Below, in pieces: positions 11,162-57,847 of a stretch of DNA of 64,000 bases (position 1 is its first letter; every line of letters begins with the position of its first letter). Made by a program: the position numbers and the translations under genes. Source of the stretch: Candidatus Woesebacteria bacterium (GTDB lineage Bacteria; Patescibacteriota; Microgenomatia; UBA1400; UBA1396). Location: positions 37,606 to 101,605 of the forward strand of contig JAJOJK010000002.1 in assembly GCA_021208605.1 (NCBI GenBank). The letters run 5' to 3'. Under the pieces are notes generated by a model. It was not told the origin of the DNA. It saw only the letters and a program-made list of their open reading frames with translations, and ran no database searches.

Positions 11162-11183
11162 CTCTTGTTGTATTTCGTTATGC

Positions 11184-33464: not shown

Positions 33465-33540
33465 GGGCCCGTAGCTCAGGGGTTAGAGCGACAGCCTTTT
33501 AAGCTGTGCGTCGAAGGTTCAAATCCTTCCGGGCTCACCA
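33465..33540 (+). tRNA. tRNA-Lys (anticodon UUU), CCA encoded
   Basis: Acceptor GGGCCCG/CGGGCTC, anticodon loop CTTTTAA and T-arm GAAGG-TTCAAAT-CCTTC, followed by ACCA. Confidence 0.9.
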
Positions 33541-33544
33541 ACAT

Positions 33545-37676: not shown

Positions 37677-38883
37677 ATGGATGAACCACTACAAAGGCAA
37701 AGAACACCGCCCAGCTAGCACCTGGCAATCCGTAGCGCGGCGCTAAGAAAACAATTCCAAGAATCAAAACAAACATCATAATGATGTTCATCACAAAATG
37801 GTGCTGCAAATTGTTCGCCAAAATTGAAAGTGGATTCCAGCTAGTAATAAACGCTTTTGCGACACCTGCGAGGAACAAAATTCGTACGATTGGTGTGACA
37901 ACGAGCCATTCTTCGCCAAGTACAAAATAGACTAACGGTTGCGTGAAGAACAGAAATGGCACCGCTGCGAAAAGAAAAACAACCGTAAGCGCCACGACAG
38001 AAAACTGCCAAGTCTTGGTGATACTCTTTTTCCGTTCAACTTTTTGTGCGTACATTGGGTACAGCGTCTGACCCACTATCGAACCGAAATCCATTGTGGC
38101 AGCACTTGCCAGTTTGTATGCGGTTTGATAAAAACCGAGAGCAGTAAATCCAAGGTACTTTCCAATAAGAAAGTCGTCAATATTTTCAGTCAAGTAATGC
38201 ACAATACTGGTGCCGATAATGTACTTCGACTCTTGAAACAACGAAACGACTCGACTCCATTGCGCCTTGAGAAGATTTGGTCGTTCCGGAAAGAGCGAAA
38301 AGGAAAGAATCACTTCCGCAACAACAGCAGCTGCGATTCCCAACAACAATCCGATACCATTTTGGAGCCAAATCGCCAAAACACCTCCCAGTACTAAGTC
38401 GATCACCTGAACACCTATGCGCAGTGCAGACTCGCGCTCAAACTGCAGTCGTTGCTGAAACTGCACAATGGCGGGATTGATAAAACCCCGCAGAAAAGGA
38501 ATAATCGCGGCAATAGATAAGTAATAGGTCAAACTCGGCTGGTCATAAAATTGTGCCAACAATGGAGCACACAAAAGAATACCGAGACTAATCAGAGTGC
38601 CGCGAAACAGTGAGACTACCCAAGCGGTGTCATAGTACCAGGCAAATTTTTTGGGCTGCTTGAGCAATACAACATTAATGCCAGTTTCCGTAAAGACTTC
38701 GGTTACGGAAATAACGAGTACCGACAATCCAAACAAACCAAGCTGTTCGGGACCCAGAATGCGAGCAATGATCGCTAAACGCACCAGTGTCAGAAACTTC
38801 GTGAAATACTTCATGAATGAAATTGCCGAGATCCCACGGACCGCAACAGATGAATGAGCGCGATGGAACAGTGTTTTAAGCAT
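37624..38883 (-). CDS. Wzx-like MOP-superfamily polysaccharide flippase
   Basis: 419 aa with 12-14 TM helices, resembling the polysaccharide biosynthesis protein family. Confidence 0.6.
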   Translation of the reverse strand: MLKTLFHRAHSSVAVRGISAISFMKYFTKFLTLVRLAIIARILGPEQLGLFGLSVLVISVTEVFTETGINVVLLKQPKKFAWYYDTAWVVSLFRGTLISLGILLCAPLLAQFYDQPSLTYYLSIAAIIPFLRGFINPAIVQFQQRLQFERESALRIGVQVIDLVLGGVLAIWLQNGIGLLLGIAAAVVAEVILSFSLFPERPNLLKAQWSRVVSLFQESKYIIGTSIVHYLTENIDDFLIGKYLGFTALGFYQTAYKLASAATMDFGSIVGQTLYPMYAQKVERKKSITKTWQFSVVALTVVFLFAAVPFLFFTQPLVYFVLGEEWLVVTPIVRILFLAGVAKAFITSWNPLSILANNLQHHFVMNIIMMFVLILGIVFLAPRYGLPGASWAVFFAFVVVHPYAWFVLRQALRRISHAR

Positions 38884-39901
38884 GCGTAGACCGGTCTTGT
38901 CTTTGATTATACAGGCGTTGCATGAGTCCTGTCAGTGTCCCAGACAAAACGGCCGTATCCGTCATGAATTGGTACCAGGGGTACAGAAGCCAGGATTGGG
39001 CAAAACGGAATCGGAAACGTCTGCCCTTAATACCAATATAGGCACTGAGAACAAGAAAAAGCGCAAAAACACTCCAAAATACTGAATTGGTGCGCCACAG
39101 CAGAAAAGCGGTCACTGCCAAAAAGAAAAGGTAGCGCATCCACATACTCGCATGTCCCCATCGCCATGTAGCAGCCAGCATGTCGCCACGAGTTAGGTGG
39201 AAAATCATACGCCAGTAGGCAAGCGCGGTTGTTCGCGGTGTCCAGACAACTTCTGCATCTGGCACAAAAACTGATTGGAATCCTTTCAATTCGGCGCGAC
39301 GCGACCACTCAAAATCTTCGGCATAGTTCAGATCATCTCGGAATGGGCCAATTTCTTGCCAGGCAGAAACACGCACCGCCATATTTCGCGTAGCGGGTAA
39401 GGGATGAGTCCCAATTTTTTCTCTCGACACTAACACAAATGCAGACTGAACTTCTTCTGCTGGTGAAGTCTCAGCGCCGCGAGTATAGCCAGAAACCAAT
39501 TGAACACCAGACAGTGAAAATGCGTGAATAATACTTTCGAGCCAAGAGGCAGACAGTTGGCAACCGGCGTCAGTAAAGCATACTACCGTTCCACTCGCTG
39601 CATCGACGGCACGGTTTCTTCCAGTAGATCGAGTAGCACTCCCTGGGATTGAAATAGCCTGTACTTTGATTCCTTTTGGACGCCAATTGTGCGCGACGCC
39701 AAGCGAATCATCACTCGATTCGGCCACAGTAATGACTACTTCATCAGGCAAAACAGTTTGTTTTTCTAAATCGTGCAGCAGTTCTTGCAGCGCAGCGGCG
39801 TCGTTTTTTACCGTTACAATCACTGAGAATCGCTGCTGCTGCATATGCGTAGTATCGCAAACCGTACACTTTTTGTCAGTATCAGGCGATATGGTTGACA
39901 C
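38876..39901 (-). CDS. Family-2 glycosyltransferase with C-terminal membrane anchor
   Basis: FSVIVTVKND followed by C-terminal TM helices. The start is likely the internal MQQQRFSV. Confidence 0.6.
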   Translation of the reverse strand: MSTISPDTDKKCTVCDTTHMQQQRFSVIVTVKNDAAALQELLHDLEKQTVLPDEVVITVAESSDDSLGVAHNWRPKGIKVQAISIPGSATRSTGRNRAVDAASGTVVCFTDAGCQLSASWLESIIHAFSLSGVQLVSGYTRGAETSPAEEVQSAFVLVSREKIGTHPLPATRNMAVRVSAWQEIGPFRDDLNYAEDFEWSRRAELKGFQSVFVPDAEVVWTPRTTALAYWRMIFHLTRGDMLAATWRWGHASMWMRYLFFLAVTAFLLWRTNSVFWSVFALFLVLSAYIGIKGRRFRFRFAQSWLLYPWYQFMTDTAVLSGTLTGLMQRLYNQRQDRSTHA

Positions 39902-44117: not shown

Positions 44118-45068
44118 ATGCACATACTCGTCACTGGCGCCGCTGGCTTTATTGGATCGCATGTGGCGACAGCCTTACTGGAGCGCGGAGACACCGTAGT
44201 TGGCATCGATACTCTCAATGATTACTACAATCCAGCCTGGAAGCAAGCCAATCTGGATCGATTATCAGCATCTGACAACTTCTCTTTCCAAAAAATTGAC
44301 TTTTCTGAACGCGCTGAACTCGAGCCACTCTTTGCTCAAAACTCGTTTGACTGCGTTGTCCACCTTGGCGCTCGTGCCGGCGTGCGCCCATCAATTGTTG
44401 ATCCACTGCTTTACGAAAAAACCAACGTCCAAGGCACGCTGAATATTTTAGAAGCCATGCGCGAACACGGCGTCCAACAGATTGTAGCGGCCTCTTCCAG
44501 CTCGGTGTATGGCAACCAAACCAAGGTTCCCTTTTCAGAATCTGACCCCGCTAACGCCCCGATCAGCCCCTATGCCGCCAGCAAAAAAGCCTTGGAAATG
44601 TACTGCCACACCTACGCGCATTTGTATGGCATCCAAGCCACCTGCTTACGCTTCTTCACCGTCTACGGACCAAACGGCCGCCCCGACATGGCGCCGTATC
44701 TCTTCACGGAAGCTATCTTTACCGGCAAGCCGATCAAAAAATTCGGCACTGGCGAAACCAAGCGTGACTATACTTTCATTGACGACATCGTCGCCGGGGT
44801 TCTCGGCGCCATCGACACGCCCAAGCCATTTGCCATCTATAACTTAGGCAATCACACGCCGGTGAGCCTCAACGAGTTTATTGCCACGCTTGAAGACATT
44901 ATTGGCAAAAAGGCCATCATCGACCAATACCCCATGCAGCCGGGCGATGTAGAGATTACGTATGCCGATGTCACACGCGCGCAAGAAGATTTTGGGTATG
45001 AGCCCAAGACGCCGTTTGCCGAAGGGTTGCGGAGGTTTGTGGAGTGGTATCGGGAAAATCGGTTGTAA
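44118..45068 (+). CDS. NAD-dependent nucleotide-sugar epimerase (UDP-glucuronate 4-epimerase-like SDR)
   Basis: Rossmann motif TGAAGFIGS and catalytic YAASK. Confidence 0.75.
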   Translation: MHILVTGAAGFIGSHVATALLERGDTVVGIDTLNDYYNPAWKQANLDRLSASDNFSFQKIDFSERAELEPLFAQNSFDCVVHLGARAGVRPSIVDPLLYEKTNVQGTLNILEAMREHGVQQIVAASSSSVYGNQTKVPFSESDPANAPISPYAASKKALEMYCHTYAHLYGIQATCLRFFTVYGPNGRPDMAPYLFTEAIFTGKPIKKFGTGETKRDYTFIDDIVAGVLGAIDTPKPFAIYNLGNHTPVSLNEFIATLEDIIGKKAIIDQYPMQPGDVEITYADVTRAQEDFGYEPKTPFAEGLRRFVEWYRENRL

Positions 45069-45471
45069 CTATCGATTTCTCTGTGAAAACCAATGAGCAA
45101 TATCCTTTGTAACAGTCGGACCAGCTATCGTCACGGTAAAAAAGAAAAGCAATATGTACGGAGCGTAGTATCCGATATATTCGAGAACTTGAATTAACCA
45201 GTTACCGATAACCATAATTATCTCCATATGTACTGAGATAGTACCACAAAAAGGCACACGCCAGAATATTTATTCCATTTGCAATAACCGGTACCACCTG
45301 TATTCCAAGAACTGAACTCCACGTGATACCAAACGTAATTTGGAGAAGCGCGATTGATAAATCTCGGTAATCACGCTCACCAAGCCAATGCCAGAACCCT
45401 GCCATTCTCCTAAGAAGATTCGCACTCATAGGTTGTACTCTACCACCCAATCTGCACAAAAAAACGCACAA
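45069..45471 (-). CDS. Small polytopic membrane protein, apparently frameshifted (ORFs 45202..45471 and 45069..45257 overlap by 56 nt)
   Basis: Both pieces are hydrophobic. The position, divergent from a GtrB-like GT, suggests a GtrA-like or DUF-type accessory subunit, but the sequence match is weak. Confidence 0.3.
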
Positions 45472-45489
45472 CCTGCTATAGTAAAGAGC

Positions 45490-46401
45490 ATGTCAACGCC
45501 GTACATTTCCTTTATCGTGCCAGTCATGAATGAGGAAGAAAACGTGGCTCAACTGCACGCCGAAATTGTGGCTGCAGCCAAAAAGATCAATAAACCCTTT
45601 GAAATCATCTTTATTGACGACGGCTCCTCCGACAACACCTCCGCCGAACTGCAAAAACTCGATCCCATCACCATCCTGCGCATGCGCCGTAACTTTGGTC
45701 AGACCGCTTCCATGGACGCCGGCATCAAAGCCGCCCAAGGCGAGTTTTTGGTCACCCTCGACGGCGATCTGCAAAACGACCCCGCCGATGTACCGCAAAT
45801 GCTGCAAAAACTCCTCGACGAAGATCTCGACGTGGTCTGCGGATGGCGCAAACACCGCCAAGATTCCTGGAGCAAACGCTTTATTTCGCAGGGCGCCCGC
45901 TGGCTGCGTTCCTTCTTGGTGAGTGACGGCGTGCACGATTCCGGCTGCACGCTGCGCGTCTATCGCCAAGAATGCTTTGAAGGCGTCAACCTGCGCGGCG
46001 AAATGCACCGCTTTATTCCCGCTATTTTGAAGTGGCGCGGATTCCAAATTGGCGAAATGGTCACCAACCACCGCGCGCGTATTCATGGCACCACGAAGTA
46101 CAACTTCAAGCGCACGCTCAAAGGCTTTCTCGACATGCTGAGCCTGTGGTTCTTCCAGAAATACTCGGCGAGGCCGCTGCATTTTTTGGGAGGGATTGGA
46201 ATTTTGCTGGCCTTTGGCGGCGTGGCATTGCTTGCTTGGCTCTTCTTTGCCCGCCTTGTCTGGGGCTATAGCCTGAGCGACCGCATCTGGCCCCTGATGG
46301 CTATTTTCTTGATTTTGTTTGGGTTTCAGATGTTTGTGAGTGGGTTGATTATGGATTTGGTGATACAGCAAAAATCTGATAAAAACTACTTTTTAAAGTA
46401 A
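45490..46401 (+). CDS. GtrB/DPM1-like polyprenyl-phosphate glycosyltransferase (GT2 with two C-terminal TM helices)
   Basis: Motifs ISFIVPVMNEE, IFIDDGSSD and LDGDLQ, with C-terminal TM helices. The ORF-track start at 45388 is probably too early; the start at M 45490 is preferred. Confidence 0.75.
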   Translation: MSTPYISFIVPVMNEEENVAQLHAEIVAAAKKINKPFEIIFIDDGSSDNTSAELQKLDPITILRMRRNFGQTASMDAGIKAAQGEFLVTLDGDLQNDPADVPQMLQKLLDEDLDVVCGWRKHRQDSWSKRFISQGARWLRSFLVSDGVHDSGCTLRVYRQECFEGVNLRGEMHRFIPAILKWRGFQIGEMVTNHRARIHGTTKYNFKRTLKGFLDMLSLWFFQKYSARPLHFLGGIGILLAFGGVALLAWLFFARLVWGYSLSDRIWPLMAIFLILFGFQMFVSGLIMDLVIQQKSDKNYFLK

Positions 46402-46408
46402 TACTGGT

Positions 46409-47008
46409 ATGCATCACGCGATCTCTCAGGTAAATCAGGCAGTGAGAGCAGTCACTTTATCTGTTAAGCGTTTTATTTGGAACCTCATGTTTGCTTTGAT
46501 AGTTTTCGTGATGCTTTTAAGTAGCAGCTCTTTACTTTCTTTTCAGGCGCGTCTTCCCCTAAAGTCTTATTATTGGGTACTTCAGTTTGTGAGCCTCATT
46601 ATCGCTTCATGTGTTGCATATTCGGTAGGACAATTTGTTACTAAAAAGAAAAAAAGCACTCTCATTTATTGTGGCCTACTCCTTATTTTTGCTCCGATAA
46701 CCCTTTTGTTATTTATTCAGGGAACAAACACACTTTCCGCAATGAGAGTTCACTCACTCAGTAGCACTTCCTCCATACAAGGCGATTACATTTCTATTAA
46801 TGGACATAATTTTGGCGACGCATGGGAAGCTGGTACAGTTACCGTGGGAGGAACAAACTTTATTATTGTTCGATGGGAAAATGAAAAAGTCGTCATAAAG
46901 CAACCGGTGACAGAACCAGTTGATAACGCTGTTTTGCGCATCTGCAATGCACAAGATATCTGCGACGAATACAAATACTTTACTATTCTGGATCCGAGCA
47001 CTTTATGA
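46409..47008 (+). CDS. Membrane protein with a C-terminal IPT/TIG-like extracellular domain
   Basis: 2-3 TM helices followed by ISINGHNFG...VTVGGTNFIIVRWENEKVVIKQP. Confidence 0.45.
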   Translation: MHHAISQVNQAVRAVTLSVKRFIWNLMFALIVFVMLLSSSSLLSFQARLPLKSYYWVLQFVSLIIASCVAYSVGQFVTKKKKSTLIYCGLLLIFAPITLLLFIQGTNTLSAMRVHSLSSTSSIQGDYISINGHNFGDAWEAGTVTVGGTNFIIVRWENEKVVIKQPVTEPVDNAVLRICNAQDICDEYKYFTILDPSTL

Positions 47009-49551
47009 AAACTCTTTTCTCCTGGATACTCCAAGCACTGTTTCTATTTTCAATACTCATAGCTACTATCTTTGGTATTCAGTTTTTTGTCCCGCATCCA
47101 TACTTCAATCTTCCCCATTTTTTTGCTCTGGCTCCCGCACTTGCTGCATTAGGCTTTATTGCCGTCAATTGGAACAAAATTGACTACCGAGTACTCATTG
47201 AGAAAACTACTGAAAGAGGTATTGCTTTTCTTTTTTCACCACATCTTTTAGCCAGTATCGTTGTACTTACCTTTATATCTGGTTCCATTTCTGTGGCGGA
47301 GCATCATTTTACAATTCACCCACCAAAAAATGTCACCGTTTCTGAAGTGCTCTTAGATGAGAAAAAATCGAAAACAACGCTATATGACGGCGAGTACAGA
47401 TCTTCCCTCGATAACTTTGGCACCCTCCTGGTGACGCTTTCGGATCCAATGCCAAGTAACTTTCTTTTTCGTCTGAAAGAAAAAGACGCTACAGAATGGC
47501 TCTTTGAAACTGAATTTGGCCCAACACAAGAAAAAACACTTCTCCTCGGTTTTCCCAAAGTTGCGTCAAAAGGAAAAAACTATACCTACCAAATAATCCC
47601 AGAATCTGGAGAGGTTTCGATCGAGGCGATTCACCATCGCCATATTTTCTCATTGGCTGATTTCAAAAATAATCCGATTGTATTCGTCGATTTTCTTTCC
47701 AAAAAGGTATTCTTTGAGTCAGAATATATTCTGAATTCGTTTGGGCAGTACAGTGCAGTCACCTTAATATCTTTTGGTCCATTTCTAAGCGCGGCGGCAC
47801 TTCTAGTTATACGTTTACAAAAACGTGTACACCTTACATTTTTTTCTAAAGAGAAGAAAAGCCCTCAAACTACAGATATTAGATTCTTATTACTAGTACT
47901 CTACATAACCATGTTCGCAGCGATATTGAGACTCCTCAATATTTCGCTGCTACCATTTAGTGGCGACGAAGGCCTCTACCCACTGATCACTGACGCCATT
48001 CTTAAAAATGGATTTCCACTTTTGGAATCAGGCCAACTGTACATGCGAGGTTACCTATTCAGCTACCTTACTTCACTGAGTGGATTACTTTTCGGTACTA
48101 ATCACCTTTCTATGCGCTTTGTCTCGTTACTTACTGGTGTTGCGTTCGTGTACTTTTTGACTCAGTACTATAAGAACACAAATAAGGTATTCGCACTAGG
48201 TGTCGGAATATATGTTGCCACCTATCCATATCTTATAGCCTGGTCCACACAGGCGCGACACTACATGATTGGATATTTACTGCTCTTTCTTACACTGGCA
48301 ATCTTGTACCAAAGTACTGTCCAAAAAATATCACGAAAACAACTTGCTGCGTATGCTGGAATTGTGTTTCTAGCGGGATCAAACCTCCTTTTCAGCTATG
48401 CAGTGATCCCTGCTTTCTTGGTGTTTTTGGTACTGAAAGATCGATGGAAGTGGGTAACAAATCTTCCTCTGATTACACTTATTGGCAGCTTTACAGCCGG
48501 TTATCTTTTTAATTACAAAATTCTCAATTTCTATCGCCTACATTTTCTCAAAGGGACCTATGCTGTTCAGTCTTCGAATACGGTAGGAGTCTTTGATGCT
48601 TTCTTACCAACTTTCCATTACTACAGCTCAACTATACTTTTCAGTCACCTCGGAATACTCATGCTTATTGCTGCGCTTGCTGTCTATCTCCTTCAGAAGC
48701 GTCGTACACTAGAAATTACAATACCAAACAAAATTACGCTGATGGGTATTTTTGCCCTCATTAACTTTCTCTTTGGATTCTTGCTGTTTAACCGTTTTGC
48801 CGTAAAGTACTTACTTGGAGTCTATATTGCCTTTGGTATTTTTACTATCTGGATACTGTTCTCTCTTGTCCAAAAACTCTCACTTCCTAAAAAACAGCTT
48901 CCAGTCGTTTTTATTTGCATGCTCTTAATAGGCATTCTTTCATCTCGCACCGTGAAAGACTATGCCAGCCACTACTATTTTGAAAGAAACCGTGTTGGTG
49001 ATATTGAACTCTATTCTAGTAGTACTTTCTCTCAAGCAAAGCTCTATGGAGAGCTTCTTCATAATCCCTATGTGTTTCATGGAGTTACGGCCGTTATTCG
49101 TAGCCCCAGATCTCTCGAAGCACTCGAGTACATCAGGAGCCAAAAACAACCGAATGATATCTACGTAGTAACCGATATTTACAATCTTTGGCACTATGGT
49201 CAATATGACTACATTATGAATGGAACTCTGAGCTCCGAAATGGGGTATATTCCATCTGGAAGTGATCAAGTTCTTTCCATCTACTCCAACACACCTTACA
49301 TACGAAATGCTGACGAACTCACCCAAGTAATAACTCAGATGAAATCAGGTCAGACTATTTGGCTATTCGCTGGCAGACGCTTTAGCGAACACAATGATAC
49401 ACTTTCGATCTACGTTAAAGATATCTTTAAGCAGCGCTTTGTCAGTCAAGTCGACGAAGTTGGCGTACACTCCGGCAGAAGAAATGAACCTATCGTGGTA
49501 TATAGCTACACAAAAAATAAATTACTCTTTTTTCTGGAAAGTATTTCTTAA
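47005..49551 (+). CDS. Large GT-C-fold glycosyltransferase (ArnT/PMT-like, GT39/GT83) with a ~250-aa N-terminal extracytoplasmic domain
   Basis: 848 aa with 12 or more TM helices and a first-loop DE motif in LLPFSGDEGLYPL. Confidence 0.55.
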   Translation: MKTLFSWILQALFLFSILIATIFGIQFFVPHPYFNLPHFFALAPALAALGFIAVNWNKIDYRVLIEKTTERGIAFLFSPHLLASIVVLTFISGSISVAEHHFTIHPPKNVTVSEVLLDEKKSKTTLYDGEYRSSLDNFGTLLVTLSDPMPSNFLFRLKEKDATEWLFETEFGPTQEKTLLLGFPKVASKGKNYTYQIIPESGEVSIEAIHHRHIFSLADFKNNPIVFVDFLSKKVFFESEYILNSFGQYSAVTLISFGPFLSAAALLVIRLQKRVHLTFFSKEKKSPQTTDIRFLLLVLYITMFAAILRLLNISLLPFSGDEGLYPLITDAILKNGFPLLESGQLYMRGYLFSYLTSLSGLLFGTNHLSMRFVSLLTGVAFVYFLTQYYKNTNKVFALGVGIYVATYPYLIAWSTQARHYMIGYLLLFLTLAILYQSTVQKISRKQLAAYAGIVFLAGSNLLFSYAVIPAFLVFLVLKDRWKWVTNLPLITLIGSFTAGYLFNYKILNFYRLHFLKGTYAVQSSNTVGVFDAFLPTFHYYSSTILFSHLGILMLIAALAVYLLQKRRTLEITIPNKITLMGIFALINFLFGFLLFNRFAVKYLLGVYIAFGIFTIWILFSLVQKLSLPKKQLPVVFICMLLIGILSSRTVKDYASHYYFERNRVGDIELYSSSTFSQAKLYGELLHNPYVFHGVTAVIRSPRSLEALEYIRSQKQPNDIYVVTDIYNLWHYGQYDYIMNGTLSSEMGYIPSGSDQVLSIYSNTPYIRNADELTQVITQMKSGQTIWLFAGRRFSEHNDTLSIYVKDIFKQRFVSQVDEVGVHSGRRNEPIVVYSYTKNKLLFFLESIS

Positions 49552-50463
49552 GCCAAACTCATGGATAACAAATGGCAAACCTTGTAACGTGAGGAGAACG
49601 TACACAGCTCGACTCATAAGTGCAAAAAGTGTGGTGAGAGTAGGATCCACTCCAAATATTCCGAGAGTATATATCAACACCAATTCTCGTGTTCCCCATC
49701 CATTTACACTCACGGGTATGAGCATAATGAGCTCAACGAGCACGAAAGCGAATCCAATCTGGAAAACTGATACTGGCAGTGCCACCATCAAAGCCACCCC
49801 ATATGCCATAACTATCTGAATTACCTGAGCAAGAAGCGTGAAACCGATCGAAGGTATGAGCACATTATGATTCAGAAGCGTACTCTTTACAGTACTGAGT
49901 AATGAAAAAAGTTTTTGCTTGAAGAAACGGAGTGATATCAAGAAAATAATACCTGTAATCGGAATCAAATAGATATACTTTTTCAGAGAGCTAAAATCAA
50001 AAGAAACAAAATCAATTTGGGTAAATAAGTACAAAGAAAACAGGAAAAAGAGTAAAACACGAGTACTTAAACCAACAACTCTTTCAATAATTACCGTCGA
50101 GAGTGAAATAGTTTTCGGTACATCATATTTTTTATTCAGGTGGACCACTCGGTACCCATCTCCAACAATACTACCCGGCGAAATTTGGTTTATGCAGTTG
50201 TGTTTTAGGTACAGTAAAAATAGTTCCTTCAGAGGCACTTCAACTGATAGATGTCGCAAAGCTACTCGCCATCGTAAAGACATCACCAATAAAAGCAGAT
50301 AGTAGAAAATAACTGGAATGACGATATATTCCCAGCGAGTAGACAGCAAGTTTTCAAAAAAGAACCTAAAGTCAACGAAGTAGTAAATAAGAAAACTTGT
50401 CAGAGCTATAGAAACACCATATCGAAGCCATCGTGCACGAAGAAGTGATTGTATTTGTTTCAT
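49522..50463 (-). CDS. UPF0104/LPG-synthase-TM-like flippase-associated membrane protein
   Basis: 313 aa with about 8 TM helices and ...VSVNGWGTRELVLIY. Confidence 0.5.
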   Translation of the reverse strand: MKQIQSLLRARWLRYGVSIALTSFLIYYFVDFRFFFENLLSTRWEYIVIPVIFYYLLLLVMSLRWRVALRHLSVEVPLKELFLLYLKHNCINQISPGSIVGDGYRVVHLNKKYDVPKTISLSTVIIERVVGLSTRVLLFFLFSLYLFTQIDFVSFDFSSLKKYIYLIPITGIIFLISLRFFKQKLFSLLSTVKSTLLNHNVLIPSIGFTLLAQVIQIVMAYGVALMVALPVSVFQIGFAFVLVELIMLIPVSVNGWGTRELVLIYTLGIFGVDPTLTTLFALMSRAVYVLLTLQGLPFVIHEFGLRNTFQKKE

Positions 50464-50465
50464 AG

Positions 50466-51440
50466 CTATTTAAATATTCGTAAATATGCCTTTTTATATA
50501 TATCAAAACGCCAGAGCCACGGCACTTGAAGATACGTATTCACGAACAAAAGAGCGGCTAAAACATTTACTGGCATTGCCATCAAGCTTTTCAAAAGATA
50601 GATTCTGCTTGCCCTAAATTCGCGTGCTTGCGCTTTAAAAATACCTGTTTGTAAATATATACTAGAAATAATAGTTCTGTACCTCCACGCTGGAATGAGA
50701 AATTTTCTGCCATAGATTCGATAATTCTTTTGAATGACCGCTATTCTCTCTAAATACGCCTTTGTTTTGTCTCTGTTGTGGAGGTTTTTATCATGCATTC
50801 TCCACGAAGCTAAGACTTCATTGATATAAGCAAACTGTGTATGTGCGGCACACCGCATAAAAAAGTCGTAATCATTACTGATACTGTAATTCGCATCAAA
50901 ATCACCAACGAGATCATACAGGGACCGGCGAAATGTCACCGAAATAGCCGAGACAAACATACCCTTTAAAAGCAACTCTTTAAAAATCCAACCTTTTTGA
51001 GGACCTATTGGGTTCTCAGCAAAACGTGATTCTGAAATAATATTTCCATCTTTATCAATCCGAGCCGCATCCGTATACACCACGCCCACTTCTGGGTTGG
51101 AATCGAGCACCTGTACCATTTTTTCAAGGGCCGTCTCATGCCAGAGATCATCTGAACCAATGTGAGAAATATACGTTCCTTTTGCGTGCTGCATGGCGTA
51201 GGAGATAGCAAACGCTATCCCTTTATTCTGTGACAAGGGTAGAAATCGAACTTTTGCGTACTTCTTTTTTTTCAGTAGCTGCTCAATATACTGCGGCGTT
51301 TCGTCGGTGGAACCGTCATCAACCAAAATGATCTCAAAATCTTGGTACGTTTGCGCTACTAATGAATCGAGAGTCTCTTGGAGGAACTCTGTTCTATTAT
51401 AAGTCGCTAAGGTAATGGAAACAGTTGGAGCGCTCATCAC
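50466..51440 (-). CDS. Family-2 glycosyltransferase
   Basis: VSITLATYNR, ILVDDGSTDET, SDDLW. Confidence 0.75.
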   Translation of the reverse strand: MMSAPTVSITLATYNRTEFLQETLDSLVAQTYQDFEIILVDDGSTDETPQYIEQLLKKKKYAKVRFLPLSQNKGIAFAISYAMQHAKGTYISHIGSDDLWHETALEKMVQVLDSNPEVGVVYTDAARIDKDGNIISESRFAENPIGPQKGWIFKELLLKGMFVSAISVTFRRSLYDLVGDFDANYSISNDYDFFMRCAAHTQFAYINEVLASWRMHDKNLHNRDKTKAYLERIAVIQKNYRIYGRKFLIPAWRYRTIISSIYLQTGIFKAQAREFRASRIYLLKSLMAMPVNVLAALLFVNTYLQVPWLWRFDIYKKAYLRIFK

Positions 51441-52561
51441 TTCTCGTTTTCAAAGGACTGTATTAACTCAATAACATACGCAATCTGCTCATCTGTCATC
51501 CCTGGGTAAATAGGCAAACTGAGGATTCTAGCTGTATACTTTTGTGCAACCGGAAACTCTTCTGGGGAGTGATTCATGTACGAAAAACACTGCTGCATGT
51601 GTAATGGTATTGGATAGTGAATAAGCGTATCAACCCCGTTCTCCTGCAAATAGGCCTGTAACTCATCGCGCTCCGGGTGCTGAATTACATAGAGGTGATA
51701 CACACTTTCAATTTCATCTGGAATACTGAGACGATATTCTCCTAAAGCTACGTCATATTTTTGGGCAATGTACTTTCTTTGTTGATTCCAGCTGTCTAAG
51801 TGCGGGAGTTTTGTACGCAAAAATGCAGCCTGAAGCTCATCAAGTCGAGAATTTTTTCCTAGCATTTCATGGTGATACTTTTTCTTTTGTCCGTAGTTAT
51901 GCAGAAGCTTGGCTTGTTCATAAAGTTCAGGATCATTGGTAACAATGGCTCCTGCATCACCATAGGCTCCGAGGTTTTTACCCGGATAGAAACTAAATGC
52001 AGCCATGTTTCCAAACGTTCCTGCCTTTTTCCCTGAATATGTTGCACCATGTGCCTGGCAAGCATCCTCCAGGATCTGAATACCGTGTTTTTCGGCCAGC
52101 TGCATAAGCTGGTCCATTGGAACCATAGAGCCATACAAATGAACCGGTAAGATAACTTTTGTATTGTTGTTTATGGCAGCGGCAACAGCATTCACGTCCA
52201 TTTGCAAAGTTGCCTCATCCACATCAACAAAAACGGGTGTTCCCCCTGCTTCGATTACTGCCAATGCAGTAGCCACAAAAGTATGTGTTGGCAAAATGAC
52301 TTCGTCATTTTCACCAACTCCCATGGCTTTCAGAGCTAAGATGAGTGCATCTGTGCCACTTCCCACACCAACACAGTACTTACTGCCAATATAAGCAGCA
52401 AATTCTTTCTCGAACTCGTCGACTTCATTTCCTAAAATAAAGTGTTGAGCAGCAAAAACACGATCAAAATCATCCTGCAGCTCTGCTTTCACTTCTTGAT
52501 ATTGGGGCGAAAGATCGACGAAAGGTACCTTCATAGTTCCTTTTCTAAAATTTGTAAACAA
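51437..52561 (-). CDS. DegT/DnrJ/EryC1-family PLP-dependent sugar aminotransferase
   Basis: GVGSGTDAL, and FSFYPGKNLGAYGDAG with the PLP Lys. Confidence 0.8.
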   Translation of the reverse strand: MFTNFRKGTMKVPFVDLSPQYQEVKAELQDDFDRVFAAQHFILGNEVDEFEKEFAAYIGSKYCVGVGSGTDALILALKAMGVGENDEVILPTHTFVATALAVIEAGGTPVFVDVDEATLQMDVNAVAAAINNNTKVILPVHLYGSMVPMDQLMQLAEKHGIQILEDACQAHGATYSGKKAGTFGNMAAFSFYPGKNLGAYGDAGAIVTNDPELYEQAKLLHNYGQKKKYHHEMLGKNSRLDELQAAFLRTKLPHLDSWNQQRKYIAQKYDVALGEYRLSIPDEIESVYHLYVIQHPERDELQAYLQENGVDTLIHYPIPLHMQQCFSYMNHSPEEFPVAQKYTARILSLPIYPGMTDEQIAYVIELIQSFENEK

Positions 52562-53811
52562 GTCTCAAGAGTTTCAATACAGAAGTCAATTTCATCTCGG
52601 GATATCCGATAGCTTGGGATTATGCGGAACGTTTTACCTTTTTGAATCGCTTGTACCATCACACCCCGCTGCTCAAGCAGATCAATAAGTCTCATTCCAG
52701 GGTTGTTCGTTTCGGTAAAGTATTCTTCAGGCAGATCAAAAGAAATCATCAATCCTTCGCCACGTGGTCGCAGCAGCAAAGCACTCTTCTTCGAAAGCTC
52801 TTGCAGTCTGCTTACAAAGTATTCACCCGTTTCTAGAATTTTCGAAAGCATATCTTCTTTTTTAATCGTATTAATTAAATGAAGGACCATCCGTGCAGAA
52901 AAAGGATCATTCTGGTGCGAACTAAAGTGAATGAACTTCCCTTCTACCGCCTCCGCAATTTCTTGAGAAAACATCACAGCTGAAACGGGAAAACCAAGTC
53001 CAGCTGCCTTTGCTAGTACTAAAATATCAGGAACTATGCCGGTTCGCTCGTAGCCAAACCAGGTCCCGAGTCGGCCCAGTCCAGTTTGACATTCATCATA
53101 GATCAACAAGGCACCATGTTTCTTGGCAATTTCAGCCAAACCAGCAAAATACTCTTTTGGCAAATAAATCATGCCACCGACCGATACAACTGGCTCAATA
53201 ATAAACGCCGCTATGGTACCTTCAAATTCCGAAAGATATTCTTCGGCGGCTTGGAGGTGCTCAGCTATATACTCGCTGCCATCAACATCTGCAGGACGAT
53301 TATGCCAATCAGGAGTAGGAATAAAGTGGGAACCAGGAACGAGCGGGTGAGCGTATGCACCACCACTCGAAATACTCTGTGTTGCCAAGGTCAACCCGTG
53401 ATACCCATTGGTAATCGAAACAATTCCATCTTTCTTGGTGTAAAAACGGGCATACCGCAACGCGCACTCAACAGCCTCTGCGCCGGTAGAAAGCAAGATT
53501 GTTTTTTGCAATGTATCATTGGTTATCTCGCTAAGCGCGCGACACGCTTCGAGAACCTCTTCAGTCAAACACAGCGTGTTAGTGTGCAAAATCTTTTTGC
53601 TTTGCTGGTATACAACTTCGGCTAACTCTTCATCACCATGCCCCAAGACCTCACAAAACTGTCCGCCCATTAAATCAAGATAGCGGTTGCCATCTATATC
53701 TTTGTAGTAGCTACCTTCTGCTGAAGCCAGTATGGGCGCACGAAATGGAGTAACTTCAAGTACATACTTCTGATACTCATCAAAAAACTGTTTACTTTTC
53801 TTCATGTTCAT
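52531..53811 (-). CDS. Class-III (omega-type) PLP aminotransferase
   Basis: STGAEAVE, IYDECQTGLGRLG, and LAKAAG with the PLP Lys. Confidence 0.75.
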   Translation of the reverse strand: MNMKKSKQFFDEYQKYVLEVTPFRAPILASAEGSYYKDIDGNRYLDLMGGQFCEVLGHGDEELAEVVYQQSKKILHTNTLCLTEEVLEACRALSEITNDTLQKTILLSTGAEAVECALRYARFYTKKDGIVSITNGYHGLTLATQSISSGGAYAHPLVPGSHFIPTPDWHNRPADVDGSEYIAEHLQAAEEYLSEFEGTIAAFIIEPVVSVGGMIYLPKEYFAGLAEIAKKHGALLIYDECQTGLGRLGTWFGYERTGIVPDILVLAKAAGLGFPVSAVMFSQEIAEAVEGKFIHFSSHQNDPFSARMVLHLINTIKKEDMLSKILETGEYFVSRLQELSKKSALLLRPRGEGLMISFDLPEEYFTETNNPGMRLIDLLEQRGVMVQAIQKGKTFRIIPSYRISRDEIDFCIETLETCLQILEKEL

Positions 53812-54724
53812 AGAGTTCCTTTAGCACTTCTTTCATGCCGGCGACAAAAGAGTATTCTGGTCTAAACCCAAGTTCACTTTTTGCTTTCTCAATACTAGGC
53901 ACATTATGCACTGGTTGTCTGTTTTCCTCGACCACATTTTCGATCTCCATCTGAGAACCAGTGAGTGCTTCAATGCTGGAGACTATATCCCGAATAGTCA
54001 CCACATCTTCCCCGGCAATGTTGTAAAAAGTATTTGTGTTGACATCGAGAGCGCGCATAACTGCAGAGGCGGCATCTTCAACATAGAGAAAACGTCTCTT
54101 GTCTACGCCTTCATTGAGCAAACGAAAGACTTTCTTTTCTTTCCAGGACTGCACCGCAAAAGGAATGACTCGCACGAGTGGCTCATTCGGTCCATAAACC
54201 TGAGAAAAACGCAAACCAGTGTAAGGAATACTATTCATTCGTGACCAATACTCAAGATATGTTTCGGCAGCATATTTGGCCACACCATAAGAAGATTCTG
54301 GTTGGATTCTATGATCTTCACTGTACTCTTCATGCTCTGGAACACCGTAAATATCTATGGTGCTGGTAAACACCACTTTCTTAGTGTTTTTTCCCACGGT
54401 CTCTAAGAAATAAAGGAAAGAATCAAAGTTTTTTTCTTTGGCAGCAATTAGACTGTCGACGCCCTCACTGCGAGGTAAGATGCTAGCAGCTGCGAATATG
54501 GCACTCTCAGTCTCTCCGATACGATCTGCTAACGCCTCGTACTCCTTCAAGGACAACTCGAAAAGATCACACTGAACAAAATGCAGACATGGATGGTGTG
54601 ATGTCCGCTCTTTCCGCGAAATGGAAATAACCTCAGCACCCAGAGAAAGCAGGCGTTCTACTATACGCGTTCCAATAAATCCGGTCCCTCCAGTAATGAC
54701 TATCTTTTTACCCTCTAAATTCAT
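53792..54724 (-). CDS. NAD-dependent epimerase/dehydratase (extended SDR)
   Basis: ITGGTGFIGTR and YGVAK. Confidence 0.75.
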   Translation of the reverse strand: MNLEGKKIVITGGTGFIGTRIVERLLSLGAEVISISRKERTSHHPCLHFVQCDLFELSLKEYEALADRIGETESAIFAAASILPRSEGVDSLIAAKEKNFDSFLYFLETVGKNTKKVVFTSTIDIYGVPEHEEYSEDHRIQPESSYGVAKYAAETYLEYWSRMNSIPYTGLRFSQVYGPNEPLVRVIPFAVQSWKEKKVFRLLNEGVDKRRFLYVEDAASAVMRALDVNTNTFYNIAGEDVVTIRDIVSSIEALTGSQMEIENVVEENRQPVHNVPSIEKAKSELGFRPEYSFVAGMKEVLKELYEHEEK

Positions 54725-55788
54725 GTTTGATCCCTCGCAGAGCCGAACTCCTGTCCATCTCTATAATACACTTCCTGCCAAAAACGAGTCATAGTGACTC
54801 CTGGGTGAAACTCAGCTGACATGTCTCTGTCCTCTCCCAAAAACAACTCTAGTGCTTGTTGATGAATATTTACTCCAGCGACCGTGCTCAAAATTGACCC
54901 GGCAGAAAAACGCGGATTGATTTCAATAAAATGAAACTCACCATCTTCAGATTGAATAAACTCAATATTCGCCGGACCACAAATACCTAGTGCTTCACTC
55001 ACCTCTCGGGCGAGAGCAACAAGCTTCGCATTATGCGTAGTGGTTGATTTCACTCCAACTCCACTCTTAGACTCGTGCTCAATTCGAGGCAGAGCATATA
55101 AATTCTTTCCTTCTAGAGTGTTCAGCACATCGACTACATAGAGTGTCCCTGGATAGTATGGCTGCACCACACAATCGCTTGATTTCAACTGCATAAATTG
55201 CAAGTCTTCAGCCGTAGGAATGAGAGAGATTCCTCGGCTACTAAGGCCTTTCCTGGGTTTGGCAAAAAGAGGAAATGAGACGGCGTGTACCTCTACTTCT
55301 TCAAGCAGCCAGGTTGGAGTCGTTTCAACTCCTTCCTTCTGCAAAGCCTGATACGTTTTCAATTTGTCATTGCAGTTTTGAACTGTTTCATGAGATGACG
55401 CAACTATCTTCACTCCCTTGTCAGCAAAAGCCACTTTGTTCTGAGAAAGAAGCAAAACTTCTTCATCAACAATGGGAACAACTACCTCAATTTCATATCT
55501 CTCGCATATTTCGAGCATTTTGGAAATGTACTCATCAGAGTGAAAAAGTGGCACAGTCTCAAAATCATCGCAAAACACGCTTCCAGCGACTGTATCAGAG
55601 GAGTTACTGTCAGTTCCTACGATATACACAGGGAGTGTGCCTCTCCGTAAACCCTTTATAACCGACAACGCTGTCGTACTTCCGACAGCTGAAATAAGTA
55701 CTCGTACCGCAGAACTATTCCTCATCCCACTCCTGATTAAATAATGGATGCGCAAACGTATCATTCTCCGACCACATGCCATTAGCAT
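54721..55788 (-). CDS. ATP-grasp-domain ligase
   Basis: PreATP-grasp VLISAVGS, and EINPRFS as the Mg/ATP loop. The start is likely the internal M at about 55725, since the ORF-track start overlaps the upstream gene by 74 nt. Confidence 0.65.
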   Translation of the reverse strand: MLMACGRRMIRLRIHYLIRSGMRNSSAVRVLISAVGSTTALSVIKGLRRGTLPVYIVGTDSNSSDTVAGSVFCDDFETVPLFHSDEYISKMLEICERYEIEVVVPIVDEEVLLLSQNKVAFADKGVKIVASSHETVQNCNDKLKTYQALQKEGVETTPTWLLEEVEVHAVSFPLFAKPRKGLSSRGISLIPTAEDLQFMQLKSSDCVVQPYYPGTLYVVDVLNTLEGKNLYALPRIEHESKSGVGVKSTTTHNAKLVALAREVSEALGICGPANIEFIQSEDGEFHFIEINPRFSAGSILSTVAGVNIHQQALELFLGEDRDMSAEFHPGVTMTRFWQEVYYRDGQEFGSARDQT

Positions 55789-56137
55789 AATTGATCATAG
55801 CAGCATACTCAGAAAGACTCTTAAACCCATGCACAACATACGGTCCGGTCTCTAAACGCACATACTTACTGTGGTCAGCATCAATAATAATCTCTTCTTT
55901 TTCTCCGGTACGCACATCTTTGAGACGAACTAGTATTTTCCCGGATACAACACCAAACCACTCTCGCCAGTGTTTGTGATAATGTTCACCACGAATCTGG
56001 TTCTCTCCATGAAAAGTTACAAAATAAATCTGCCCAAACGTTCGATCCTGCTCTTTGAGTTCATCACTTTTCAGAAAAACCACGAGGTCACCGCGGGAGT
56101 CGTTTATTTTTTCAAATTCTTGGATTGTGTAGTCCAT
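55715..56137 (-). CDS. FdtA/WxcM-like cupin (TDP-4-keto-6-deoxyhexose 3,4-isomerase family)
   Basis: INDSRGDL...RGEHYHKHWREWF, 140 aa. Confidence 0.6.
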   Translation of the reverse strand: MDYTIQEFEKINDSRGDLVVFLKSDELKEQDRTFGQIYFVTFHGENQIRGEHYHKHWREWFGVVSGKILVRLKDVRTGEKEEIIIDADHSKYVRLETGPYVVHGFKSLSEYAAMINYANGMWSENDTFAHPLFNQEWDEE

Positions 56138-56152
56138 AGACTTCCTTAATTT

Positions 56153-57070
56153 TTACAAAGATATCTGTTCAATATTGTTGGTAGGAAAATATGAGTTTTC
56201 TTTTTCAGAAACTAACCGTATTTCCTGATCATCACTATATATCTTGTGCAAGGTGATATCAATTCCACCCGACTGCACGTCAACCTCCGCAACGTAATTA
56301 TAAAAGTACTTGTCGGTAAAACGCCCATGGACTTCTTCGAAGATGAAGTTCCCAAGGCTATAGAGTAAAAACTGATTGCTTTCGGCTGAATAATAGGTTT
56401 TACCGTTTTGATGAGAGTGATGACCAAAGACTGCGTGTGGTATAGAGTCAGGTATATATTTTCGCAGTGACGTAAGCTGTTTAAAATCCTTTTTGCTAAA
56501 ATCATCTCGTCCGCACTTCCCAACATGCGGAAAACCAATCACAGCCAGAACATCTGAAAAATCTTTTCGCTGCAGAGCTTGTTGCACATCTGCAATTGAA
56601 TATGGAAATTTTCCGTATCGATGATTATAGAGATTTGCAGTCACTCCATATTTACTGGGATTTACGAGGTTGCAGTTATAAATCAGAATTCTTCCCTTAT
56701 TCGGAACAATTACTTCTTCGATGACCCCAGCCAGTGATTCTACTGATTGATACGACAGATCTTCATTCTGTAAGAATCGAACGGTTTCCAATACACCCTT
56801 CTTTCCGAAATCGAAAATGTGATTATTAGAAAGGAAAAAAAATGCGTTGAGTTTCGGGAAGTTCTTGCCATTCTTGCTAAGAGAAAAAACGGGATAGTTT
56901 CCAAGGAGTTTTGCAATCCATGATGTACCACTGTTCTCTGGTTTCTTTGAAAGAACCACCGACTCTAAATTAAAATACACGCGTGAACCACCAAGCATTT
57001 TGACAATCTCTGGCTGTATAGTTCGCTTCGTATTCGGGAAAATAGTATCGCCGGCAAAAAATATTTTCAT
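56153..57070 (-). CDS. CapA/PGA_cap-like metallophosphatase
   Basis: N-terminal FNLES and C-terminal GHHSHQ...LYSLGNFIFE hallmark. Confidence 0.6.
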   Translation of the reverse strand: MKIFFAGDTIFPNTKRTIQPEIVKMLGGSRVYFNLESVVLSKKPENSGTSWIAKLLGNYPVFSLSKNGKNFPKLNAFFFLSNNHIFDFGKKGVLETVRFLQNEDLSYQSVESLAGVIEEVIVPNKGRILIYNCNLVNPSKYGVTANLYNHRYGKFPYSIADVQQALQRKDFSDVLAVIGFPHVGKCGRDDFSKKDFKQLTSLRKYIPDSIPHAVFGHHSHQNGKTYYSAESNQFLLYSLGNFIFEEVHGRFTDKYFYNYVAEVDVQSGGIDITLHKIYSDDQEIRLVSEKENSYFPTNNIEQISL

Positions 57071-57071
57071 A

Positions 57072-57847
57072 CTACTTTTTCACCACAAGGAGATAGTTTA
57101 GTGGGAAAAGCGACTCATTTTTCGTCATCCTATCCAGCTGCAAAAGCACCCAGTATAGCGGGTATAAAAGTGGTACAAGAAGTTTCCCAATTACAGGGAT
57201 TCCGTATAAGGGTGAAATCACCGTAGCAAATACATATCCCAAAAAGGCAAAAAAGCCACCTATAGGAGTAATTTCCAAAACCGTGAAACCTGCATCCTCG
57301 GCTAGCATTTGCAGACCGTACCTGGTATAGCGGTAAAAGTCATAGGGAGCATTGTGAATATACCCTAACATTGGGACAGTAATAATAGCCGTCCCGGATG
57401 GCTTTAAGACTCGATATATTTCTCCCATTGCGTGCCATGGATGCGGCACATGTTCCAACACTTGCGAACAAAAAACAACATCAAACTTCTTTGACTTAAA
57501 AGACATTTTTCGATATCGGTCACTACATCCAAATCTTTGTGTACTTTTTGGAAATCAGAACTTGTATACGTATCTCCATGCTCTTGTAATAACGACCGAT
57601 AGGCCAATTTCCCTGCTCCGGCATCAAGAAAATCACCACCATCAGTATACTTTTCTAGAGCATACTCAGTTGAGTTCAGTAAAGATATACCAGCAGGCGA
57701 ACGCATCCAATAGGCACGGGTACCAGCATACTGTTTTGCTACTTTTTTATTTAATTCTTTAAGTATTTTTTTGAGGCTCATAACTTCCTTCTTCCTTCGT
57801 GACCAGACTCTCAGTATATAAATACTTCCCCGAAGCACTCGGGGCAA
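57072..57847 (-). CDS. Class-I SAM-dependent methyltransferase split by a 1-nt deletion in an A5 run (ORFs 57404..57847 and 57072..57506)
   Basis: Motif I FLDAGAGKLAY lies in the upstream ORF and FDVVFCSQVLEHVPHP in the downstream ORF. Adding one A at about 57502 (GAAAAA) restores ...DIEKMSFKSKKFDVVF. Confidence 0.7.

Follow-up and report, generated by a model that had tools for sequence, protein, structure and literature searches.

The window analyzed here, a 64,000-nucleotide (nt) stretch of contig JAJOJK010000002.1 from a Candidatus Woesebacteria bacterium, encodes a short CapA-like protein that very probably forms a conserved unit with a CapK-like ligase. The CapA-like, cupin, and ATP-grasp genes sit within a minus-strand glycan operon at ~49.5 to 60.3 kb of the window. 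The original prediction, made from the sequence alone, had recognized a CapA-like gene (SLGNF hallmark), an FdtA cupin, and an ATP-grasp ligase inside a glycan locus, and all three were confirmed where it had placed them, on the minus strand. The object of interest is CapA together with whichever amide ligase the locus carries, and here that ligase is the CapK-like enzyme. Our leading explanation, to which we assign a probability of roughly 45%, is that the CapK/CapA pair equips a glycan with an amino-acid-type substituent and then modifies that substituent.

The short CapA subfamily to which the window protein belongs is rare. When 1.84 billion cluster representatives were searched exhaustively by HMMER with a subfamily profile, no more than four 50%-identity clusters fell below an E value of 1e-30, and the next match scored 65 bits. 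A word-indexed search of 5.8 billion proteins gave only 5 matches, and two members (P0121 and P0122) were reached only by the exhaustive HMMER search. Genomic context was recovered for all four lineages of the subfamily, with the gene orders given below (SDR, short-chain dehydrogenase/reductase; AT3, class-III aminotransferase).

Window clade (L001 to L004, L085, L086): GT4, CapK, methyltransferase, CapA, cupin, ATP-grasp, SDR, AT3, DegT, GT2, flippase-like; convergent GT-C
L087/L088: CapK, CapA, cupin, ATP-grasp, SDR, AT3, DegT, GT2, flippase-like; convergent GT-C
L084: Wzx, CapK, CapA, cupin, hexapeptide acetyltransferase, DegT, GT2, Wzx; convergent PMT_2
L089: GT2, GT4, CapK, CapA, GT4, methyltransferase, flippase-like, Wzx; convergent PMT_2

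Some trends were apparent. First, a CapK-like ligase gene lies upstream of the short CapA gene in all four lineages, either abutting it or, in the window clade, with only a methyltransferase gene between the two. Between the CapK and CapA genes there is a 4-nt overlap in L087 and L089 and a gap of 9 nt in L084. Second, the cupin is a neighbor in three of the four lineages and the ATP-grasp in two of the four, being absent from L084 and L089. Because the CapK-like gene is found in every lineage and the ATP-grasp gene in only two, the CapK-like and CapA-like pair can with considerable confidence be called the conserved unit. Third, the L084 copies of the cupin and DegT proteins are 57% and 55% identical, respectively, to those of the window. 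Finally, in a rough neighbor-joining tree the short subfamily of candidate phyla radiation (CPR) bacteria forms a separate long branch. One 76%-identical and fully collinear contig of the window clade (L004/L086; CAYUUK010000005.1) is labeled "uncultured Pseudomonadales bacterium"; given the NCBI Woesebacteria names on the window proteins, this label is probably a binning or taxonomy error.

The operon in the window consists of the following genes, listed from its first gene onward (aa, amino acids; ORF, open reading frame).

59117-60256, minus strand: GT4 glycosyltransferase, the operon's first gene (Pfam Glycos_transf_1 and Glyco_trans_4_4)
57759-59123, minus strand: CapK/PaaK-like adenylate-forming (ANL) ligase, 454 aa (precomputed Pfam CapK_C match)
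57072-57782, minus strand: S-adenosylmethionine-dependent methyltransferase, frameshifted in the window assembly (Pfam Methyltransf_11/23)
56153-57070, minus strand: PGA_cap/CapA-like protein, 305 aa (Pfam PGA_cap, 46 bits)
55715-56137, minus strand: FdtA/WxcM-like cupin, 140 aa (Pfam FdtA, 41 bits, and Polysacc_synt_C, 44 bits)
54721-55725, minus strand: ATP-grasp ligase, 334 aa (Pfam ATPgrasp_Ter, ATP-grasp_3, and PylC-like_N; NCBIfam matches too)
53792-54724, minus strand: SDR-type NAD-dependent epimerase/dehydratase (Pfam Epimerase, 132 bits)
52531-53811, minus strand: class-III (omega) aminotransferase (Pfam Aminotran_3, 283 bits)
51437-52534 (ORF to 52561), minus strand: DegT/DnrJ/EryC1 sugar aminotransferase, FdtB/QdtB-like role (Pfam DegT, 415 bits)
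50466-51440, minus strand: GT2 glycosyltransferase (Pfam Glycos_transf_2, 117 bits)
49522-50463, minus strand: LPG_synthase_TM/flippase-like membrane protein (Pfam, 124 bits, and the TIGR00374 flippase-like domain)

Neither the operon genes nor any other ORF scanned (27.3 to 63.8 kb) matched the Mur-ligase (CapB-type) or CapC families, which bears out the expectation that the CapA-like gene has no CapB-type partner here. An RmlA-like gene was likewise not found among these ORFs.

The CapK-like protein is assigned to the ANL/PaaK-like family on three sequence features, namely, its family match, a P-loop of the (S/T)SGxTG type, and a C-terminal Lys. Its match in the Protein Data Bank (PDB) was PaaK (4r1l, E 4e-13), and NCBIfam gave a DVU_1553 family AMP-dependent ligase (84 bits) and PaaK models, all below their cutoffs. 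The P-loop reads TSGGSTGEP at residues 114 to 122, and an SGK near the C terminus contains the candidate catalytic Lys. The gene is under purifying selection, as is the CapA-like gene. The methyltransferase gene between the two is split in the window into two overlapping ORFs (57072-57847, minus strand) by a 1-nt indel near position 57506, and it is intact, with 236 aa, in L002. A real pseudogene was considered and rejected, as the differences from the sister assemblies are all indels with no substitutions: across 14.7 kb a single gap and zero mismatches separate the window from L002, and the sister assemblies overall show 1, 3, and 6 gaps and zero substitutions. The split is therefore probably an assembly error, and the indels-only pattern fits the homopolymer errors of long-read assemblies. 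The methyltransferase has a dN/dS (ratio of nonsynonymous to synonymous substitution rates) of 0.05.

Analysis of the wider family, in which more distant stand-alone CapA homologs have ~370 aa, showed that in glycan loci stand-alone CapA homologs usually adjoin exactly one type of ATP-dependent amide ligase. A metagenome scan with a 19-sequence alignment yielded 80 further PGA_cap loci, in which the genes within 3 kb of PGA_cap were clustered and the clusters identified by Pfam. A ligase was present in 28 of the 80 loci (12 TupA-like ATP-grasps, 8 RimK-like ATP-grasps, and 8 CapK-like enzymes) and two kinds were never found together; these counts are raw frequencies, taken without a baseline from CapA-less glycan loci. 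Among loci of at least 7 kb, an ATP-dependent ligase lay within 3 kb in 24 of 48, and in 19 of the 22 that carried glycan markers. The CapK-like genes abut distant PGA_cap genes in six loci and lie within 1.5 kb of them in two more. Good examples of the RimK-like arrangement are L090, L092, and L094, which were picked from the homolog list: in each, the RimK-like ATP-grasp gene begins 3 to 13 nt after the PGA_cap gene, all three are Wzx/Wzy-type loci, and two of the three carry a UDP-sugar dehydrogenase. The TupA-like arrangement is found in culturable genera. Aliivibrio fischeri emors.2.1 (L033:9758-11812) has one PGA_cap gene with a TupA-like ATP-grasp gene immediately after it, and Shewanella sp. 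L017 has two such pairs in one locus (3338-5348 and 10001-12058); all of these pairs sit in Wzx/Wzy polysaccharide loci. In the rough neighbor-joining tree, ligase type partly tracks the CapA clades.

The association with ligases is specific to clade or context and not an artifact of the method, because two other sets of PGA_cap loci were free of ligases. One is a separate clade (L096, L135, L149, L162, L164, L168, L172, and L173) that adjoins M23/Csd3-type peptidase genes, sometimes near a tyrosyl-tRNA synthetase gene, which suggests a different role, perhaps one related to the cell wall. The other came from a genome scan that, through the short pattern SNNHI.D, returned mostly a single Clostridia PGA_cap clade; as a poor sample of the family it was used as a negative control only, and none of its 75 Clostridia-type PGA_cap loci had CapK, RimK-like, or window-type ATP-grasp neighbors. 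We found no paper describing either the CapK/CapA gene pair or the pattern of one ligase per CapA, and a search for literature linking CapA, ATP-grasp enzymes, and O-antigen decorations found nothing specific.

The ATP-grasp enzyme of the window appears to belong to a separate and variable module, in which it is a putative N-acylase of an amino sugar. This is because it is absent from L084 and L089, because in L084 a hexapeptide N-acetyltransferase fills the slot between cupin and DegT that the ATP-grasp, SDR, and AT3 genes hold in the window, and because its homologs occur without CapA. The ORF spans 54721-55788, and the likely true start at 55725 gives a protein of 334 aa that matches the L002 gene call. 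Its Pfam scores are 69 bits (ATPgrasp_Ter), 63 bits (ATP-grasp_3), and 50 bits (PylC-like_N), its PDB match is 2pn1 (E 1.3e-20), and no match to TupA-like PF14305 or RimK-like PF08443 was found at E ≤ 0.01. The adjacent cupin scores 41 bits against a Pfam FdtA cutoff of 23, with a CapF-type epimerase cupin scoring about equally. It keeps the H-x-H motif (RGEHYHK aligning with RGFHAHK of FdtA) and matches FdtA, QdtA, and WxcM in the PDB, so that it can be considered a putative nucleoside diphosphate (NDP)-4-keto-6-deoxyhexose 3,4-ketoisomerase. The FdtA-like isomerase and DegT would yield an NDP-3-amino-3,6-dideoxyhexose, and the ATP-grasp enzyme would N-acylate the amine of this sugar, standing in for the hexapeptide N-acetyltransferase of the L084 type. 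The triad of ATP-grasp, SDR, and Aminotran_3 recurs in L087 and L176. Homologs of the ATP-grasp at 30 to 47% identity are fairly common, and CapA was absent nearby in all three of the homolog contexts examined:

Methanocaldococcus bathoardescens (L177:6568-10543): RmlC/RmlA/RmlB-like genes, then FdtA, ATP-grasp, methyltransferase, HAD, DegT, GT2
Elizabethkingia miricola (L178:6588-10364): FdtA, ATP-grasp, HAD, methyltransferase, DegT
Metagenome contig (L176): DegT, GFO/IDH, ATP-grasp, SDR, AT3, with PMT_2 nearby and no FdtA

A block of FdtA, ATP-grasp, HAD hydrolase, methyltransferase, and DegT genes is thus common to an archaeon and a Bacteroidota species. It looks like an uncharacterized ATP-dependent route for N-acylation of a 3-amino-3,6-dideoxyhexose, possibly with a phosphorylated and later methylated acid.

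These contexts bear directly on the idea that the CapA-like protein works with the adjacent ATP-grasp enzyme, as a substitute for CapB, in building an oligo- or poly-amino-acid decoration. In the window clade and in L087 only the cupin gene lies between the two genes, and CapA homologs elsewhere do pair with RimK-like and TupA-like ATP-grasps. However, two of the four subfamily lineages lack the ATP-grasp and none lacks the CapK-like enzyme; the homologs of the window ATP-grasp have FdtA and/or DegT neighbors and no CapA in three of three contexts; and the window enzyme belongs to a PylC-like/ATP-grasp_3 family different from the TupA and RimK types that accompany CapA. Moreover, loci elsewhere contain a single ligase type per CapA, and no indication of a polymerizing reaction was found. 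We therefore consider this arrangement improbable. The original prediction had proposed either an amino-acid decoration made by the ATP-grasp enzyme or a different, phosphoesterase role for CapA, which is taken up below. An amide or amino-acid decoration is still plausible, but the ATP-grasp is not the conserved partner (two of four lineages, compared to four of four for CapK), and a poly-amino-acid product was not indicated by any result. The co-occurrence of PGA_cap with ATP-grasp genes, which had been put forward as a check, was borne out by the TupA-like (12) and RimK-like (8) enzymes among the 80 loci but did not extend to ATP-grasp homologs of the window type, which occur without CapA.

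The CapA-like protein itself belongs to the PGA_cap family on the evidence of its profile match, its motifs, and its fold. Pfam PGA_cap (PF09587) matches it at E 6e-12 and 46 bits (gathering score, 27), over model positions 80 to 254 only. A family profile built here also takes it in, NCBIfam gave no match to it, and the NCBI label for the gene is already "CapA family protein [Candidatus Woesebacteria bacterium]." Every one of the family motifs (GD, NLE, NNHxxD, H, GHHxH, and SLGNF) is found in the window protein, with SLGNF (S238 to F242) lying within the hallmark YSLGNFIFEE at residues 237 to 246. In an alignment with 119 family members, G7-D8, N34-L35-E36, N82-N83-H84, D87, H182, G184, H218, H220, and G240-N241-F242 were all kept; the metal-binding or catalytic residues are D8, N34/E36, N83-H84, D87, H182, H217-H218, and H220. 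The core of the active site, the conservation of which had been proposed as a check, is thus retained, and no loss of it was seen. When the protein was aligned via MslH to YmdB (correspondences from PMC10406935), equivalents of all seven YmdB metal ligands and of the catalytic His/Asp were present. The AlphaFold2 model (pLDDT [predicted local distance difference test], 88; pTM [predicted template modeling score], 0.89) is a calcineurin-like alpha/beta sandwich. Its best Foldseek match in the PDB was MslH (8gq9, E 1.7e-10), followed by YmdB-type and purple acid phosphatases (E 1e-5 to 1e-6). The single sequence gave a marginal match to MslH (E 0.17), which the family profile raised to 138 bits. 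The sequence begins MKIFFAGD, the first core beta-strand of the model comprises residues 2 to 9, and motif I starts at residue 8. Because the protein opens directly with the first core strand, it is predicted to be without an N-terminal membrane anchor, that is, a cytoplasmic and soluble minimal core.

Some positions of the site vary within the subfamily. The family Glu after the H-x-G motif, present in 93% of 120 members, is not kept in the window protein, which has D190. The equivalents of position 190 are N in P0002, E in P0003, R in P0121, and T in P0122, in a loop whose alignment is uncertain. In P0003 (L084:3874-4785), Gln replaces the near-invariant His220, the equivalent of the catalytic His295 of MslH, which may be explained by a change of function or, alternatively, by a sequencing error in one metagenome-assembled genome. 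The lineages, although only ~30% identical, are invariant at nine other catalytic or metal-binding positions, and dN/dS of the CapA-like gene is ~0.11 compared to its 76%-identical ortholog, as expected under purifying selection. These data also address a noncatalytic role, in which the CapA-like protein would be a scaffolding partner that stabilizes the ligase or hands off its product. Such a role has been suggested for PgsA in the PgsBCA complex, and the tight coupling of the CapA and ligase genes (4-nt overlaps), the nonconserved Glu at position 190, and the H220Q change in P0003 are consistent with it. However, nine invariant metal or catalytic positions at ~30% identity, together with a dN/dS of ~0.1, would be surprising in a scaffold. 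Catalysis is favored because the metal site is so conserved, and a scaffolding role is the least probable of the alternatives.

In the mechanism that we propose for the pair, the CapK-like enzyme would activate a carboxylate as an acyl-adenylate and would then form an amide, or possibly an ester, by which a glycan intermediate would acquire an amino-acid-type substituent. This new substituent would be the substrate of the CapA-like enzyme, the likeliest reaction being a metal-assisted C-alpha epimerization of an N-acyl amino acid with a free alpha-carboxylate. The setting of the CapK/CapA unit would be surface-glycan loci equipped with a flippase and a GT-C transferase. The chances of an amide or amino-acid decoration appear to be about even, and those of epimerization specifically somewhat lower than that. 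Several characterized systems point in this direction. VpsH, which is PaaK/CapK-like, is required for glycine to be added to the GulNAcA carboxylate of a lipid-linked Vibrio polysaccharide intermediate (PMC13463779), and Cj1438 carries a TupA-like ATP-grasp domain that amidates glucuronate of the Campylobacter capsule (PMC11800379). MslH, a CapA homolog, acts on a lasso-peptide precursor, whose C-terminal Trp it epimerizes by means of two His/Asp dyads placed around a single Ca(II) (PMC10406935), and CapA has been proposed, by the same group, to be the epimerase that brings D-Glu into poly-gamma-glutamate (PMC8179263). Attachment by the CapK-like enzyme and epimerization by the CapA-like enzyme fit together because a gamma-linked Glu, a peptide C terminus, and an amino acid held in a uronate amide share an N-acylated alpha-amino acid with a free alpha-carboxylate.

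The conserved metal site would also suit a genuine two-metal phosphoesterase. Such an enzyme could dephosphorylate a phosphorylated amine or acid once it has been ligated, the part that the HAD phosphatase Cj1435 plays after Cj1438 in Campylobacter jejuni, or it could trim the phosphate or pyrophosphate of an intermediate linked to a lipid or nucleotide. We consider this unlikely, although several observations argue for it. The window protein has the full YmdB-type ligand set (D8, E36/N34, N83, H182, H218, and H220) plus the H84/D87 dyad, and its Foldseek matches include YmdB-like and purple acid phosphatases at the E values given above. In addition, the C. jejuni uronate amidoligase uses phosphorylated amines that are later dephosphorylated, as we understand it from references 38 and 39 of PMC11800379, and a HAD hydrolase lies beside the ATP-grasp homologs of Methanocaldococcus and Elizabethkingia but not in the window locus. 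On the other hand, the CapA/PGA_cap clade contains no characterized phosphatase, its sole characterized member, MslH, being an epimerase (PMC10406935), and poly-gamma-glutamate synthesis offers no obvious phosphoester substrate. The CapA-plus-ligase loci are also without the pyridoxal phosphate (PLP) enzymes that would make amino-alcohol phosphates, and L176 holds the ATP-grasp/SDR/AT3 triad without any phosphatase, which means that this module needs none. A more specific version, with the CapA-like protein as a stand-in for the HAD phosphatase found beside ATP-grasp homologs, was rejected as the main model since the triad of L176 is phosphatase-free and L084 and L089 have CapA without the ATP-grasp. 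An epimerase is weakly favored over a phosphatase of the C. jejuni style because HAD phosphatases, HisC-like PLP enzymes, and racemases are all missing from the common neighbor families of ligase-positive CapA loci.

A number of points weigh against attachment followed by epimerization. First, a UDP-sugar dehydrogenase, sought in support of a uronate acceptor, was found in none of the window, L084, L087, and L089, so that no local uronic acid carboxylate acceptor is evident. Second, the CapA-like site resembles that of a two-metal phosphoesterase at least as much as that of MslH and, judging from its residues, could be dinuclear: H218 is kept where MslH has G293, and G184 occupies the position of the MslH Ca ligand H261. 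Third, the large substrate-binding insertion of MslH is missing (305 compared to 440 aa), the subfamily varies at position 190, where the family has a conserved Glu, and one of its members carries H220Q. Fourth, even for bona fide CapA an epimerase role has only been proposed (PMC8179263). Finally, the pairing is defined by four lineages only, and the enzyme activities on which the mechanism is built are predicted ones.

A broader and more speculative possibility, which we would not bet on, is that CapA-family proteins are general postligation epimerases of N-acyl amino acids with a free alpha-carboxylate, recruited repeatedly by unrelated ATP-dependent amide ligases. The ligases would then be the Mur-ligase-like CapB in poly-gamma-glutamate synthesis and the TupA-like, RimK-like, and CapK/PaaK-like enzymes in glycan decoration, and MslH, in lasso-peptide biosynthesis, would be a further characterized case of such an epimerase. 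The Woesebacteria pair would be the smallest all-soluble version, installing D-amino-acid amides on a surface glycan.

The part played by CapA/PgsA in making poly-gamma-glutamate has stayed unclear for decades, one reason being that PgsBCA is membrane bound and unstable. Soluble CapA homologs paired with soluble ligases thus provide tractable two-protein systems for the question of CapA function, and the culturable Aliivibrio and Shewanella pairs are good experimental models for an epimerase, dephosphorylation, or other role. The ligases and CapA homologs described here are also candidate enzymes for the amino-acid decorations of bacterial polysaccharides, most of which are without assigned enzymes. 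The operon represents a candidate surface-glycan tailoring pathway in CPR bacteria, whose envelopes are almost unstudied. In addition, the ATP-grasp enzymes that accompany FdtA and/or DegT are candidates for the ATP-dependent N-acylation of amino sugars.

Other glycan genes surround the operon, and two of them lie in a set convergent with it:

47005-49551, plus strand: 848-aa polytopic membrane protein, probable GT-C (PMT_2/ArnT-like), with a weak precomputed PMT_2 match on the L001 gene call
45388-46401, plus strand: ArnC/PgfS-like polyprenyl-phosphate glycosyltransferase (GT2), upstream of a TIG-domain protein and the GT-C (NCBIfam ArnC, 149 bits, below its cutoff, and PgfS, 113 bits)

Our own Pfam scan of the 848-aa protein gave no match; the PMT_2 proteins of L084 and L089 occupy the equivalent position. 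The whole convergent set (44118-49551, plus strand), which consists of an SDR, the ArnC/PgfS-like GT2, the TIG-domain protein, and the GT-C-like protein, is reminiscent of polyprenyl-phosphate-sugar decoration systems of the three-component Arn/Gtr/YfhO type. On the other side of the operon, 60581-63789 encodes a second GT2 and a YfhO-like protein of 796 aa. A second glycan block (34920-39901, minus strand), with a Wzy_C-like gene, three GT2 genes, and a Wzx-type flippase gene, lies ~10 kb from the operon. Beside this block is a protein-kinase-like ORF (33506-34954, plus strand), and a kinase gene also adjoins the CapK/CapA pair in L087.

Comparison with known systems places the pair as follows. 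The window protein shares with CapA/PgsA of the CapBCA/PgsBCA systems the PGA_cap family, the motifs GD, NLE, NNHxxD, H, GHHxH, and SLGNF, and coding next to an ATP-dependent amide-forming ligase. However, PgsA/CapA carries an N-terminal membrane anchor, whereas the window protein is predicted to be an anchor-free minimal core of ~305 aa. Its partner is a CapK/PaaK-like adenylating enzyme instead of the Mur-ligase-like CapB, there is no CapC, the locus builds a glycan and not a polyamide, and the family Glu after H182 is not kept. The window protein is therefore not part of a poly-gamma-glutamate system.

MslH (PDB 8gq9) is the best PDB match by both structure and sequence, and both proteins are cytoplasmic and soluble, on prediction in the case of the window protein. 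MslH residues D11, E44, N87, H88, D91, H259, and H295 correspond to D8, E36, N83, H84, D87, H182, and H220 of the window protein, respectively. Both MslH dyads, H88/D91 and H295/D11, thus have counterparts in H84/D87 and H220/D8 (with Gln at 220 in P0003). Of the single Ca(II) site of MslH (E44, N87, H259, and H261), the window protein keeps E36, N83, and H182 and has G184 in place of H261. Conversely, MslH, which binds a single metal, has G293 where the window protein and almost the whole family have H218, so that a second-metal ligand is retained in the window protein. MslH has 440 aa with a large insertion that forms a peptide cleft and is encoded in a cluster for ribosomally synthesized and posttranslationally modified peptides (RiPPs), whereas the window protein has no such insertion and is encoded in a glycan locus. 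Since the metal site, the insertion, and the RiPP context all differ, the window protein is not of the MslH type in a strict sense.

For the ligase, the closest parallel is VpsH of the Vibrio cholerae polysaccharide, which, like the window partner, is a PaaK/CapK-like enzyme in a polysaccharide locus, a likeness drawn from its family description (PMC13463779). VpsH is a precedent for the addition of an amino acid to a lipid-linked glycan, with no CapA-like partner reported for it; genes of a uronic acid pathway were not seen in the window. The Cj1438/Cj1435 system of the C. jejuni HS:2 capsule has in common with the pair the logic of a ligase plus a follow-up enzyme for amide decoration of a glycan. 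TupA-like ATP-grasps, to which the C-terminal part of Cj1438 belongs, are the commonest CapA neighbors in the wider family, but the window ATP-grasp is not TupA-like, and the follow-up enzyme of C. jejuni is a HAD phosphatase and not a CapA-like protein. Finally, the pathway through FdtA/FdtB/FdtC (or QdtA/B/C) to dTDP-3-acetamido-3,6-dideoxyhexoses matches the window in the H-x-H cupin and DegT and matches L084 in the full order of cupin, acetyltransferase, and DegT; in place of the acetyltransferase, the window has the ATP-grasp, the SDR, and the class-III aminotransferase.

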